IMG/VR virus record: IMGVR_UViG_3300044630_003672
Source: a virus
Lineage: Duplodnaviria; Heunggongvirae; Uroviricota; Caudoviricetes
Length of the DNA: 64,000 bases
Reading direction: 5' to 3' (one strand)
The position numbers and the translations under genes are program-made. Shown in pieces: positions 17,819-39,104 of this stretch (its first letter is position 1; each line of letters opens with the position of its first letter). The notes under the pieces were generated by a model. That model saw only the letters and a program-made list of their open reading frames with translations. It ran no database searches and had not been told where the DNA came from.

Positions 17819-18094
17819 ATGAAAACTTATGTTGTAACCGGCGAAAGCCATATCTGCTTTGATGATGAAGAAAAAACGATAATTTCAATTACTAATTCAT
17901 CCAGAGTTGATAACTCTGCTATTGCATATACAAAAGACCCAATGGCATTTAGAGCTGTATATGAACACGCAATGTCTGAAATATCCGGTAGTGATAGACC
18001 GGTTGGTTCGGCGCCATTATTCCAAACTGATACGGAAGAACTTTTTAATTCAGTAAGAGAATTGGTACTTAATAAGCTGAACGCATTAGTTTAA
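17819..18094 (+). CDS. hypothetical protein
   Basis: 91-aa ORF. Confidence 0.45.
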   Translation: MKTYVVTGESHICFDDEEKTIISITNSSRVDNSAIAYTKDPMAFRAVYEHAMSEISGSDRPVGSAPLFQTDTEELFNSVRELVLNKLNALV

Positions 18095-18101
18095 AAATAA
18101 A

Positions 18102-18135
18102 TTTGGCGGATTCGTATATTTTTTGTATATTTACA
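18102..18135 (+). promoter_or_regulatory. Bacteroidota-type promoter
   Basis: 'ATTTGGCGGA-N20-TATATTTAC'. Confidence 0.5.
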
Positions 18136-18213
18136 TATACTTATAAATTCTTATGTGCGTAACTCATTGATAATCAATGAATTAAAAAAGTTATCCACAT
18201 TTTGAAAAAAAGA

Positions 18214-18247
18214 TTTGGCCGTTTCAAAAAAATGTACTATCTTTACA
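18214..18247 (+). promoter_or_regulatory. Bacteroidota-type promoter driving tRNA-Met
   Basis: 'GATTTGGCCG-N19-TATCTTTAC', 20 nt upstream of the tRNA. Confidence 0.6.
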
Positions 18248-18266
18248 AAGTTCTTTAAAATAATAT

Positions 18267-18338
18267 CGTGAGGTAGAGCAGTGGTAGCTCGCCAGGCTCA
18301 TAACCTGGAGGCCGGTGGTTCGAATCCATCCCTCGCAA
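18267..18338 (+). tRNA. tRNA-Met(CAT), initiator-like
   Basis: Cloverleaf by hand-folding: D 'GAGC/GCTC', anticodon loop 'CTCATAA', T-loop 'TTCGAAT'. C1:A72 mismatch as in bacterial initiator tRNA. Confidence 0.8.
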
Positions 18339-18449
18339 CAAAATCTATAATAGTGGTATCTGATACTGACAGCTCTTTGGGAGTGATGGGTGTGAAAGCA
18401 GATTGAAAAGGGTACAACCCAACCCCATTATAATAGATTTAAAAAAAGA

Positions 18450-18483
18450 TTTGGTAGTTTGAAAAAACTTTCGTATCTTTAAC
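18450..18483 (+). promoter_or_regulatory. Bacteroidota-type promoter (tandem unit 1)
   Basis: 'GATTTGGTAGTTTGAAAAAACTTTCGTATCTTTA'. Confidence 0.6.
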
Positions 18484-18570
18484 AAAGTTAAGGTTGAAGC
18501 CAACAATAATAAAACCGATTGTGTGAGGGGCGCAAGCTCCTAATAAAGCCGGATACCTTAATAACTTTTA
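18484..18570 (+). ncRNA. candidate short promoter-driven transcript (sRNA 1)
   Basis: 87-nt segment between tandem promoters containing a GNRA hairpin 'GGGGCGCAAGCTCC'. No ORF. Confidence 0.3.
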
Positions 18571-18588
18571 AAAAAAGATTTGGTAGTT

Positions 18589-18612
18589 TGAAAAAATTAT
18601 CGTATCTTTATG
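18589..18612 (+). promoter_or_regulatory. Bacteroidota-type promoter (tandem unit 2)
   Basis: Near-identical copy: 'GATTTGGTAGTTTGAAAAAATTATCGTATCTTTA'. Confidence 0.6.
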
Positions 18613-18669
18613 AAGATTCAAAAATAAAGTAGTTGATTGGTTTGACCAGAAAACAAAATTGAGAATCTT
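18613..18669 (+). ncRNA. candidate short transcript (sRNA 2)
   Basis: Flanked by the inverted repeat AAGATTC...GAATCTT, with an internal TGGTTTGACCA hairpin. Confidence 0.3.
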
Positions 18670-18679
18670 TAAAAATAAA

Positions 18680-18713
18680 TTTGGTAGTTTGAAAAAGATT
18701 TCGTATCTTTATA
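18680..18713 (+). promoter_or_regulatory. Bacteroidota-type promoter (tandem unit 3)
   Basis: 'AAATTTGGTAGTTTGAAAAAGATTTCGTATCTTTA'. Confidence 0.6.
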
Positions 18714-18749
18714 AAGTTATCAAATAACAAAGTTCTTTACATTATTGAA

Positions 18750-19700
18750 ATAATTTACACATAATAACTTCGTGTTATATAGTGTACAAAATGGCCGCCT
18801 ATGGTCATTAAATAAACTACGAAAGTAGGATAAAGTGAAATGTTTGGTTAAGCATTTTGCGGTTCATATCCCTGTAAGGTTATGAGCTTGAGTAGGCAAG
18901 TGAGATATCATTTGGGCTTTGTATGTGAGGGTAACACTGTAGCAGAAGAGTTTGGGTGACTGAGCAATTGTAGATTGTTCAGTTGAGTTCGGAAGAACGA
19001 TAAGAATAACTCATAGGATTATTGTAAGAAATAGAAAGCTAATCCCTTTTTATTATTGCGTGATTCAATACCAAAGTGGTCTTGACAATCAAGCTATCCG
19101 AAAGGACGTAAGATAAGACTGTGTACGGGTGGTGCCGTTACTATCCTTTAATATGGGACACCAATCCCTATTAATGAAGATGACTTGAAGTATGGCGTTG
19201 AGATAACGCATCGGGTAGTATAGTATTCTGTTCTTCAAAAGGGGACAGAGCTAGTGGTGAACCGCTACCTGAATCCATCTACGAACCAAAACTTTTATCA
19301 AATGCGGATTTGATTATTCAATTATAAATAAAAGCAAAAGTGTTCATCAGTTGTGACCGAAAGGTGCATACATAGTTGGGAGTTGTTCCCAGCCACAAAC
19401 GCCCGCAAGGCGAATGTGATATCTACGAAAAGCTTATAGACCCGCAAGGTTTAATCAGTTCGGCAGGATTGAATAAGGGGAGTAATAGGTGAGTAAGTTA
19501 CAACTTTAAGAGTGGTTAATCTATAATAACCTGCATTGACTGGTACATCTCAAAAGGATGTGGAAACGAAAGGAAACAAAATAATCTTTCTAAAGCTAGT
19601 TATCCCAACGTATATTCTCAGCGTTTTTACTTTCTCAATGGTTGCATATTGGTTCGATTCCAATAGAGAGAGCTACTAACAACTGAAAAGTTGTTCGTTT
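18750..19700 (+). ncRNA. candidate large structured non-coding RNA (ORF-free, GC-enriched, about 0.9 kb)
   Basis: No ORF longer than about 60 aa on the + strand. Locally higher GC than the genome. Repeated GNRA-closed hairpins (CCGCAAGG twice), a T-arm-like 'ATTGGTTCGATTCCAAT' near the 3' end, and a strong terminator at 20013. Confidence 0.4.
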
Positions 19701-20012
19701 CATATCTTAATTTTTATTACAACTTGAAAAGGGGGGCATATCAATATGTTCCCCAATTTAAGCCTGATAAAACTAACAAAGATTCGGAAAATAAAATTAT
19801 TATATACTTATATAAACAAACAGTGATGAAAACTTTAACACTACATACAAATTGTTCGCAACCTACATTGAGAAATGAGTGGGCTGGGATTCGTATGTTT
19901 AGTACGTTAAGTAATCCGGCAAACTTAAATTTAGGCAAGGTGGATTATATTAGTACGAAGCAGTTAGAGGACACTGATGTTGGGTAATTACATAACTTAA
20001 CTTAAATAGAAA

Positions 20013-20049
20013 GACCTCTAACTGAATAAAATCGGTTAGAGGTTTTTTC
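20013..20049 (+). terminator. Rho-independent terminator
   Basis: ACCTCTAAC-N12-GTTAGAGGT stem followed by TTTTTT. Confidence 0.75.
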
Positions 20050-20056
20050 GTTTTAA

Positions 20057-20128
20057 GCTCCTTTGGCGCAGCGGTAGCGCAGCAGACTGTTAATCTGTTG
20101 GTCCTTGGTTCGAATCCAAGAGGGAGCG
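20057..20128 (+). tRNA. tRNA-Asn(GTT)
   Basis: Acceptor GCTCCTT/AGGGAGC, anticodon loop CTGTTAA, T-arm CTTGG-TTCGAAT-CCAAG. Confidence 0.8.
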
Positions 20129-20161
20129 CAAGATTAAGTTCTTTGACATATTGGATAAGTA

Positions 20162-22055: not shown

Positions 22056-22092
22056 CACATTATCGTTCTTTGACATATAGGAGAAATAAATT

Positions 22093-24245: not shown

Positions 24246-24436
24246 CAAAAATTGTTAGATGGTGAAATTGGTTATCTATGTTATAACCTGGCAAACACAC
24301 CCACTCGTCTCGTGGGCGAGGATAAAGAAATAGAAAAGTAATATGGGGTTGACCACCAGCTTGCAAGCACTAAATGTTACTTTTTGAATCTCCTCCTGTA
24401 TGGTTCGAATCCTACTCTAACAGCATACTTATTGTT

Positions 24437-24985
24437 ATGAACGTTATATTATTTGTTGCATTAGAAAATGAGTTTCCAAAGGAAAAAGCACCGGAAGGTG
24501 TTAAAGTTGTTTATACTGGTGTTGGAAAAGTAAATGCGGCTATAAAAGCAACTGAAACTCTTAAAGATTTAGACCCCAAAGATGTAGTAGTTATAAACTA
24601 CGGAAGTGCGGGTGGGCATGCCGTTATGGTTGGTAGTTTATTTAAGTGTAAAACATTTGTCCAAAACGATATGGACGCTAGACCATTTGCAGATAAAACA
24701 AAAACACCATTTGATAATGAAATATTGATGGGTAATATTGATTTCAATGGATTGGGATATAATATATGTTATACACAAGACCATTTTCAAACCACACCAT
24801 CTGTAATATGTGATATGGAAGCATACTCAATTGCAAAGGTATGTAAGATTTATGGATTTGATTTTACTGCATACAAATATGTAAGTGATAGCGGTAATCC
24901 GGATGATTGGGAAGCTAATCACAACAAAGGAATTGAATTATTTTTAAAATCATTACAAAAATATGCCCTGATGGTGGAACGGTAG
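24437..24985 (+). CDS. mtnN: 5'-methylthioadenosine/S-adenosylhomocysteine nucleosidase (MtnN/Pfs family)
   Basis: PNP_UDP_1 fold: 'VVYTGVGKVNAA', 'INYGSAGG', 'DMEAYSIAKVCKIYGFDFTAYKYVSDSGN'. Start set to 'MNVILFVALENEF', because the longer ORF overlaps a tRNA-like remnant. Confidence 0.8.
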   Translation: MNVILFVALENEFPKEKAPEGVKVVYTGVGKVNAAIKATETLKDLDPKDVVVINYGSAGGHAVMVGSLFKCKTFVQNDMDARPFADKTKTPFDNEILMGNIDFNGLGYNICYTQDHFQTTPSVICDMEAYSIAKVCKIYGFDFTAYKYVSDSGNPDDWEANHNKGIELFLKSLQKYALMVER

Positions 24986-38649: not shown

Positions 38650-39069
38650 ATGGGAAAAGTATTTGAAAGTGAATTTCATAAAGGAGTGATTGTAGCGGTT
38701 GTTGATAAGGGTGATTATCAATATCAACAACTCGCACCACTATTCAATGAGTATGGTTATGGGTTTGTAGCACCTGACCAAAAGTTGATATTCATTGATG
38801 GTGACCAATCTGCTTCAACACAAAAGATAGTAGAGGCACATGAAGTTGGGCATATAGTATTCAATCATACGGGTATTAAAGGTCCAAATGATGAAGCTGA
38901 AGCTGATAGTTGGGCAATTCTAACTTTAAGAAAGTATGGATATTCGGTAGAAGCTGATAAGTTGATTATTGAATTCAGAAAAAGACATGGTTATTCATAT
39001 AATCATGCTCAAAACAAAAGAAACAAAATAAAAGTATTGAGTACGATTTTTGTGAATCAAATAGTATAG
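38650..39069 (+). CDS. HExxH-motif protein (ImmA/IrrE-like metallopeptidase motif)
   Basis: 'IVEAHEVGHIVFNH'. Confidence 0.45.
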   Translation: MGKVFESEFHKGVIVAVVDKGDYQYQQLAPLFNEYGYGFVAPDQKLIFIDGDQSASTQKIVEAHEVGHIVFNHTGIKGPNDEAEADSWAILTLRKYGYSVEADKLIIEFRKRHGYSYNHAQNKRNKIKVLSTIFVNQIV

Positions 39070-39070
39070 A

Positions 39071-39104
39071 TTTGGTAGATTCAAAATAATTTCGTATATT
39101 TGTA
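39071..39104 (+). promoter_or_regulatory. Bacteroidota-type promoter
   Basis: 'GATTTGGTAGATTCAAAATAATTTCGTATATTTGTAA' followed by 'AAACCCCTTAATATG'. Confidence 0.65.

Follow-up and report, generated by a model that had tools for sequence, protein, structure and literature searches.

A complete GOLLD RNA gene beside the tRNA array of an uncultivated phage, with putative rRNA-like and tRNA-like signals in its flanks

What does a phage encode in almost a kilobase of DNA that has no convincing open reading frame (ORF) and lies beside its transfer RNA (tRNA) genes? The question is raised by positions 18750-19700 of a 64,000-nt stretch (hereafter, the window) of the IMG/VR virus record IMGVR_UViG_3300044630_003672, a member of the Caudoviricetes. 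A preliminary description, made without database searches, had proposed here a large structured non-coding RNA (ncRNA) of the GOLLD or ROOL kind next to a phage tRNA cluster. The flagged interval holds a whole 834-nt RNA (18791-19624, plus strand, as are all features below), which we identify as GOLLD. GOLLD is among the largest ncRNAs of bacteria and phages and has been known since 2025 as a protein-free cage larger than the ribosome; features of the family include protein-free assembly into 14-mers and a rise of expression in lytic growth.

Identity and extent of the GOLLD gene

The longest stop-free stretch within 18712-19825 is 53 amino acids (aa) in any of the six frames, the minimum among windows of the same size across the 64 kb (median 153 aa), in agreement with the earlier view of the region as ORF-free. 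The G+C content is raised, as had been noticed: it is 0.390 in 18791-19624 and 0.379 in 18750-19700, whereas the window averages 0.330. Only 3% of 834-nt windows reach the value of the GOLLD interval.

An Rfam scan, which the preliminary description had suggested, was run with Rfam 15 on the whole window and returned GOLLD (RF02032) at 19211-19624 (306.8 bits, E = 6.9e-87). The score is twice the gathering score of 150 bits, and the match spans model positions 1-416 of 416, untruncated. It is the sole non-tRNA match in the window, and a permissive scan of 18000-20100 (E<=1) added only tRNAs and one sub-threshold terminator-like match. Of the two RNA classes proposed for this site, it is thus GOLLD that is present.

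RF02032 models only the conserved 3' half of GOLLD, and the 5' half was placed via env-38, a GOLLD RNA from a marine metagenome, whose sequence was taken from the supplement of Kretsch et al. 2025 (PMC12286853). Positions 18791-19623 align over their full length with residues 3-814 of the env-38 copy used, at 74% identity over 841 columns, a value that is approximate because this copy lacks 17 of the 833 bases (PDF extraction). The 5' domain (18791-19210, aligned with env-38 residues 3 to about 413) corresponds to the nanocage 'cap' of env-38, and the conserved 3' domain (19211-19624, RF02032) contains a variable A/U-rich linker at about 19273-19330. The two genes are collinear over both domains and have lengths of 834 and 833 nt. 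This end-to-end alignment sets the limits of the gene at 18791-19624, and we consider it almost certain that it is a complete, intact GOLLD RNA gene and a close relative of env-38.

Both RNAs are composed of two domains and share long identical blocks (e.g. GAGCTTGAGTAGGCAAGTGAGATATC), a GC/GC contact between junction J13/15 and loop L20, a GC in loop L21a, and an identical TCGGCAGG L21b loop. Moreover, both lie downstream of a tRNA-Met gene (for env-38, PMC12286853). They differ at about a quarter of positions, and their linkers are unrelated in sequence. The window copy is a newly found member of a known family and has all of its defining features that lend themselves to in silico testing. 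As genome annotation the find is routine, as any Rfam scan detects it; its value is that of an intact close relative of the solved env-38 with its natural flanks.

Conserved pairing and contacts between subunits

Relatives were sought among IMG/VR viral contigs retrieved by a 16-base 5'-domain pattern (at least 120 contigs), on which all counts of relatives given here rest. By nhmmer, the GOLLD of the window is found in 119 loci of the set examined and is full length in at least 98, where homology extends from position 2-3 of the interval to position 830-834. The length of the relatives' RNA is 769-847 nt. Among public phage records, the closest belong to two uncultured huge phages (635 and 642 kb), both of which contain GOLLD.

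A redundancy filter at >93% identity left 72 sequences for alignment, 65-91% identical to the window. RNAalifold predicted 179 pairs on this alignment, 145 of them with compensatory double changes, and a RIBOSUM-scored consensus of the 72 sequences gave 225 pairs (94.5% canonical, 164 with compensatory changes). Both domains contribute: the 5' domain, which is outside the Rfam model, has 111 pairs (95.4% canonical, 84 compensatory) and the 3' domain 106 (94.2% canonical, 79 compensatory). When partners were slid by 1-3 columns, about 40% of pairs were canonical, and column shuffles gave 75-79%. Some of the excess over the slid controls is to be expected, since the alignment tested is also the one that yielded the structure, and the compensatory counts are the stronger evidence. 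None of the sequence-level outcomes that the preliminary description had named as speaking against a structured RNA (a negative Rfam result, a lack of covariation, a frameshifted gene spanning the region) was observed. With at least 98 full-length homologues, the clade provides a deep alignment for the poorly modelled 5' domain. An 18-nt hairpin insertion at 19091-19108 (loop GAAA) is absent from env-38 and occurs in some relatives only.

Could the window nevertheless carry a decayed GOLLD, a pseudogene kept in the tRNA region that is no longer a functional RNA? Phage tRNA regions accumulate degenerate elements, and even the tRNA at the 3' flank of GOLLD survives only as a minihelix here and as degenerate cloverleaves in the relatives L039, L031 and L037. 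Against this, the window sequence keeps standard pairs almost throughout all helices, at nearly all covarying positions too, which argues that it is not a decayed copy. In addition, the tertiary-contact dinucleotides are intact, the model match is full length at twice the threshold, there is no truncation with respect to env-38, and the unit has its own promoter, leader and terminator. We therefore regard a remnant as very unlikely.

The intact GOLLD RNA that we favour can be compared directly with the solved structure. By cryo-electron microscopy, env-38 forms a protein-free 14-mer nanocage (PDB 9MEE; Kretsch et al. 2025, PMC12286853), where bridge B7 is a kissing interaction of L20 with J13/15 and bridge B8 involves the self-complementary L21a loop, with a GC<->CG switch (PMC12286853). 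Two GNRA hairpins had been quoted from the window at the outset, ACGCCCGCAAGGCG and GACCCGCAAGGTT. Both are present, at 19399-19412 and 19439-19451, respectively, both belong to the GOLLD 3' domain, and their position and loop sequence identify them as L20 and L21a. The J13/15 dinucleotide (19334-19335) is complementary to L20 (19405-19406) in 71 of the 72 sequences, whether as GC/GC (38, and the window), GG/CC (25), GA/TC (4) or TC/GA (4). L21a (19444-19445) carries a palindromic GC in the window and in most sequences, and CG in 12. The nucleotides of both published inter-subunit contacts are thus retained in the window, and these residues suggest that the RNA can assemble. By analogy with env-38, it is quite likely that the window RNA also forms a nanocage: it would fold as two domains and self-assemble, without protein, into a D7-symmetric 14-mer during infection.

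Promoter, leader and 3' flank

Upstream of GOLLD lies a putative 44-nt promoter unit (repeat family D2) in five tandem copies, at 18090, 18202, 18438, 18567 and 18668, the last of which precedes the gene. Its core has 6 matches in the window against 0.08 expected, and each unit follows the pattern of a TTTG, a spacer of about 20 nt, and TAnnTTTA/G. In the predicted GOLLD promoter (18678-18711), the -33 TTTG is at 18680-18683 and a 20-nt spacer separates it from the -7 box TATCTTTA at 18704-18711. Relatives have TTTG...TAnnTTTG boxes at the equivalent position, which we take to be the sigma-A promoter pattern of Bacteroidota known from the Bacteroides/Flavobacterium promoter literature.

Between this promoter and GOLLD, three leader elements can be distinguished. 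The first is a small hairpin (GTTAT-CAA-ATAAC, 18716-18728), read from the sequence; relatives have a different hairpin (e.g. TCGGAAATGTCCGA) at the equivalent site, and by its position the window hairpin may be boxB-like. The second, about 20 nt after the -7 box, is a boxA-like motif, GTTCTTTAC (18732-18740), a one-base variant of GTTCTTT[AG]A. The third is a leader hairpin directly 5' of GOLLD (ACACA-TAA-TAAC...GTTA-TAT-AGTGT, 18756-18785; minimum free energy (MFE) -7.2 kcal/mol, z -1.7). It is kept in close relatives, and as read by eye both stems change compensatorily (inner stem AAC/GTT, AGA/TCT, GAG/CTC; outer stem ACAC/GTGT, ATAC/GTAT, TTAC/GTAA, CTAT/ATAG).

Of 96 relatives, 94 have GTTCTTT[AG]A in the 160 nt that precede GOLLD, with a median distance of 80 nt to its 5' end, against a background of 0.009 per 160 nt. 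The motif resembles the boxA of E. coli, TGCTCTTTAACAA (PMC2176067). The literature searched yielded only this E. coli consensus and no published boxA sequence of Bacteroidota, and for this reason 16S leaders were tested directly. Among 120 metagenomic contigs with a Bacteroidota-type 16S 5' end, 103 had at least 400 nt of upstream sequence. The motif was found on the sense strand in 53 of these 103 and on the reverse strand in none, at a median of 136 nt before AGAGTTTG. This strand asymmetry identifies it as the boxA of ribosomal RNA (rRNA) operon leaders in Bacteroidota. No link of GOLLD to boxA or to Nus factors was found in the literature searched.

Further exact copies of the GTTCTTT[AG]A motif lie at 18250-18258 before tRNA-Met, at 20138-20146 before tRNA-Val, and at 22065-22073 just after tRNA-Thr. 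In related loci, 18 of 55 additional plus-strand copies are less than 120 nt upstream of a tRNA, and the entire tRNA region may be under rrn-type antitermination. A separate segment, TAGGTGATGAAAGATACTCGGTAT, is conserved between promoter and boxA in L031, L037, L013, L047, L056, L082 and L084 but missing from the window, and could be a further element of the leader.

On the 3' side, a tRNA-like minihelix (19630-19672) starts 6 bases past the end of GOLLD. Its 7-bp acceptor-like stem (CTTTCTC/GAGAGAG), with a 10-nt bulge AATGGTTGCA, is joined to a T-like side made of a 6-bp stem (TATTGG/CCAATA) and a T-loop TTCGATT. The T-arm-like ATTGG-TTCGATT-CCAAT that had been noticed near the 3' end of the interval was recovered at 19648-19664, just outside the GOLLD RNA and inside this minihelix. 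Neither ARAGORN nor the Rfam tRNA model (E<=1) calls a tRNA at 19630-19672, and the D and anticodon arms are absent. An equivalent minihelix is found at the equivalent position in L032, L109, L020, L056 and L007/L060, with compensatory acceptor changes in L109/L020, L056 and L007 (variants TTATCAT/ATGATAG, TTATCTA/TAGATAA and CGCAA/TTGCG). About 6 independent sequences thus provide moderate support for an acceptor stem stacked on a T arm and kept with covariation. Other close relatives have tRNA-Gly(UCC) at this site, or a degenerate form of it.

The content of the 3' flank varies among 94 relatives. In 48 of them an intrinsic terminator follows GOLLD, its T run at a median distance of 60 nt; 16 have a called tRNA no more than 25 nt away, and 10 have a T-loop element. 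The remaining 20 were scored as 'neither', but several of these show a minihelix or a degenerate cloverleaf resembling tRNA-Gly. The tRNA that follows GOLLD in Acinetobacter phage Ab15 begins 9-10 nt past it. Many more distant relatives (including L082, L084, L067, L077, L003 and L030) share a short motif, AATGGAGC(N)ACCGG(T/C)AAAAA, which comes after the 3' end of GOLLD and before the terminator hairpin; the window lacks it.

Further downstream, a small ORF of 53 aa (MKTLTLHTNCSQPTLRNEWAGIRMFS...KQLEDTDVG, starting MKTLTLHT) occupies 19826-19987, outside the flagged interval. The preliminary description had dismissed a '98-aa ORF' here as low-complexity, a judgement that does not hold for its 3' half: this half is the small ORF, which is complete in nine related phage contigs. 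The tblastn matches lie downstream of GOLLD in 10 relatives, and in nine of these the ORF is complete (29-53 aa), its ends being conserved and its middle variable. No PHROG match was found for it, and the bias of its substitutions across codon positions is weak (12/7/15 and 14/8/14). The small ORF is probably, though not certainly, coding.

The unit of GOLLD, minihelix and small ORF is closed by an intrinsic terminator at 20009-20048, made of a 17-bp stem and a T run, with an A-tract before the stem and a T-tract after it. The terminator that had been placed here at the outset is well supported (ΔG -22.5 kcal/mol, z -6.9; none of 200 shuffles as stable). A simple terminator scanner missed it because its loop limit was exceeded, and the sole candidate that the scanner returned, 19127-19146, was rejected as a GOLLD helix. 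The terminator ends only 8 nt before tRNA-Asn, which implies that the main tRNA array depends on read-through or on a promoter of its own.

The arrangement invites another explanation, that the whole is a long structured 5' leader regulating the small ORF or the tRNA array and not an independent RNA product. Consistent with this, no terminator separates GOLLD from the small ORF, which leaves one transcription unit up to 20009-20048, and the small ORF recurs downstream of GOLLD in relatives. However, the small ORF is absent from most relatives, and in the 48 of 94 with a direct terminator nothing else lies between, which indicates that GOLLD is a stand-alone product. Moreover, env-38 folds and assembles alone (PMC12286853). 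A regulatory leader is accordingly highly improbable.

A possible rRNA-like route and its phage setting

For GOLLD as an RNA product in its own right, the flanks suggest how it might be made. Transcription would start from the strong host-type promoter at 18678-18711. As happens in rRNA operons, the boxB-like hairpin and boxA in the leader would bring in the NusB/NusE antitermination complex of the host and let about 0.9 kb of untranslated RNA escape Rho termination. RNase P would cut the 3' end at the minihelix (19630-19672), and transcripts running on would stop at the terminator 20009-20048, past the small ORF. The 3' end of GOLLD would thus be set either by termination or by RNase P. We lean slightly towards boxA/Nus antitermination of the GOLLD unit, and we give processing by RNase P even chances.

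The comparison with known systems helps to frame these proposals. Leaders of rRNA operons (boxB-boxA-boxC; NusB/NusE/NusA/NusG/SuhB) likewise place a hairpin and boxA between a strong promoter and a long untranslated RNA, and boxA-dependent antitermination is also described for CRISPR arrays (PMC7665894). The GOLLD leader shares a 9-mer with Bacteroidota-type 16S leaders, and its target would be a phage ncRNA, not an rRNA or a CRISPR RNA. At the other end, the window resembles a second kind of system. tRNA-like signals for 3'-end processing are known from MALAT1/mascRNA, and an acceptor stem stacked on a T arm with a GTTCRANYC loop is the minimal substrate of RNase P. Similarly, an acceptor-like stem here sits on a T arm with the canonical GGTTCGATTCC loop, directly 3' of a long ncRNA, and in relatives a genuine tRNA takes its place. 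The differences are that the context is that of a bacterial phage and that the D and anticodon arms are missing from the window minihelix.

Taken as a whole, one reading is that this clade of Bacteroidota phages makes GOLLD by an rRNA-like route. The boxB-like hairpin and boxA of the leader would hijack the host Nus antitermination and RNA-folding complex, and the 3' end would be set by a terminator or by tRNA-processing enzymes acting on the adjacent tRNA or minihelix, with the micro-ORF perhaps a partner in the cassette. We put this joint reading forward tentatively, as its probability falls a little short of even. The boxA leader and the 3'-end architecture appear to be undescribed for GOLLD and are possibly new.

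Several points weigh against this interpretation or parts of it. Promoter, transcript ends, processing and assembly are all deduced from sequence. The boxA copy of the window, GTTCTTTAC, departs from the common form at position 9, and the copy in the tRNA-Met unit is so near the -7 box that it may sit at the very start of the transcript. No boxA-like motif is found upstream of GOLLD in Acinetobacter phage Ab15, which makes this feature specific to the clade of the window. The minihelix (MFE -10.9 kcal/mol, z -1.6) is only modestly more stable than shuffles and is not the MFE structure in two of six relatives. For the RNA itself, a long-range helix predicted by RNAalifold (18890-18897/19610-19619) was discarded, as only 1 of its 8 pairs covaries and its pairing is no better than that of column shuffles. 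To these is added the incomplete env-38 copy mentioned above.

The explanation that fares worst, a different RNA class or a frameshifted protein gene, can be set aside as extremely improbable: there is no match to ROOL, tmRNA or group I/II introns at gathering scores in the whole window or at E<=1 in 18000-20100 (the permissive scan on which their exclusion rests), ARAGORN finds no tmRNA in the window, so that the tmRNA-like or intron-like element also considered in the preliminary description is not retained, the longest open frame is 53 aa, and substitutions among relatives keep base pairs and not reading frames. ROOL is nonetheless a parallel: it too is a large, ornate RNA of phages, lies near tRNA genes and builds cages of RNA alone (PMC12286853), although it is unrelated to GOLLD in sequence and structure.

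GOLLD is therefore the element to be placed in its genomic setting. The adjoining tRNA array that had been reported is real, with 26 tRNAs by ARAGORN. One of them, tRNA-Met(CAT) (18267-18339; ARAGORN and Rfam), has its own promoter unit and the upstream boxA-like motif at 18250-18258. The remaining 25 start from 20057 onward, so that GOLLD lies between tRNA-Met and the main array. Among the relatives listed, the closest also have tRNA-Met upstream of GOLLD, at 190-460 nt, and tRNA-Asn downstream. That GOLLD is constantly linked to tRNA genes suggests that it has a role in the tRNA or translation programme of the phage. GOLLD would then be a self-assembling RNA cage that is produced from an rRNA/tRNA-like biogenesis unit and tied to that programme. 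If the rRNA-like route proposed above is real, it would open a first experimental way into the cellular production of an 830-nt RNA that has to fold and join into 14-mers. The boxA leader and the tRNA-like or terminator 3' end lead to testable hypotheses on transcription and maturation.

All large ORFs of the window are on the plus strand, and PHROG matches among the window ORFs include a DNA ligase, AAA ATPases, an epimerase and a halogenase-like protein. In bacterial contigs, two of the 120 pattern matches listed are real GOLLD homologues and the rest are chance matches; both are short contigs, binned in metagenome-assembled genomes (MAGs) of Flavobacterium sp. and Bacteroidetes. The promoter type, the boxA type and these two MAG matches are suggestive of a Bacteroidota host for this large uncultivated phage, and the flanks would tie the RNA to hosts among which cultivable phage-host pairs might be sought.

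Some minor observations concern the surroundings of the gene. Three short stretches between promoter units are conserved and syntenic upstream of GOLLD in relatives: 18340-18437 in L072, 18482-18566 in 8 relatives and 18611-18667 in 3. A long stem, ATCTATAATAG...CCATTATAATAGA, closes the first of these. All three are without an Rfam match in the E<=1 scan of 18000-20100 and look like separately promoted small RNAs. Two more promoter-unit cores (AATTTGGTAGATTCAAAAA-like) at 414-432 and 39069-39087, distant from the tRNA region, probably belong to the same class of strong promoter, put to use elsewhere in the phage. A further, canonical T-arm sequence, GTATGGTTCGAATCCTAC, at about 24396-24415, lies outside the called tRNAs at the start of the ORF 24374-24985; it could represent a tRNA that was missed or has degenerated, or a further tRNA-like element.

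Finally, the GOLLD RNAs of Acinetobacter and Mycobacterium phages and of Lactobacillales prophages also have a 3' domain that fits RF02032 and also lie in tRNA arrays. Their 5' domains are shorter and divergent, and tRNAs flank them directly, without a promoter or boxA leader of their own. Some GOLLDs hold a tRNA within the J13/15 linker (PMC12990946); ARAGORN finds none in that of the window. Two deposited genomes carry GOLLD without annotation. In Acinetobacter phage Ab15 (L363, PP763259.1), it lies at 1209-1940 and is overlaid by short 'hypothetical protein' coding sequences on both strands, and in phage vB_AciJM_313 (L364) it lies at about 1153-1944, in a gap between tRNA-Gln and tRNA-Pro.

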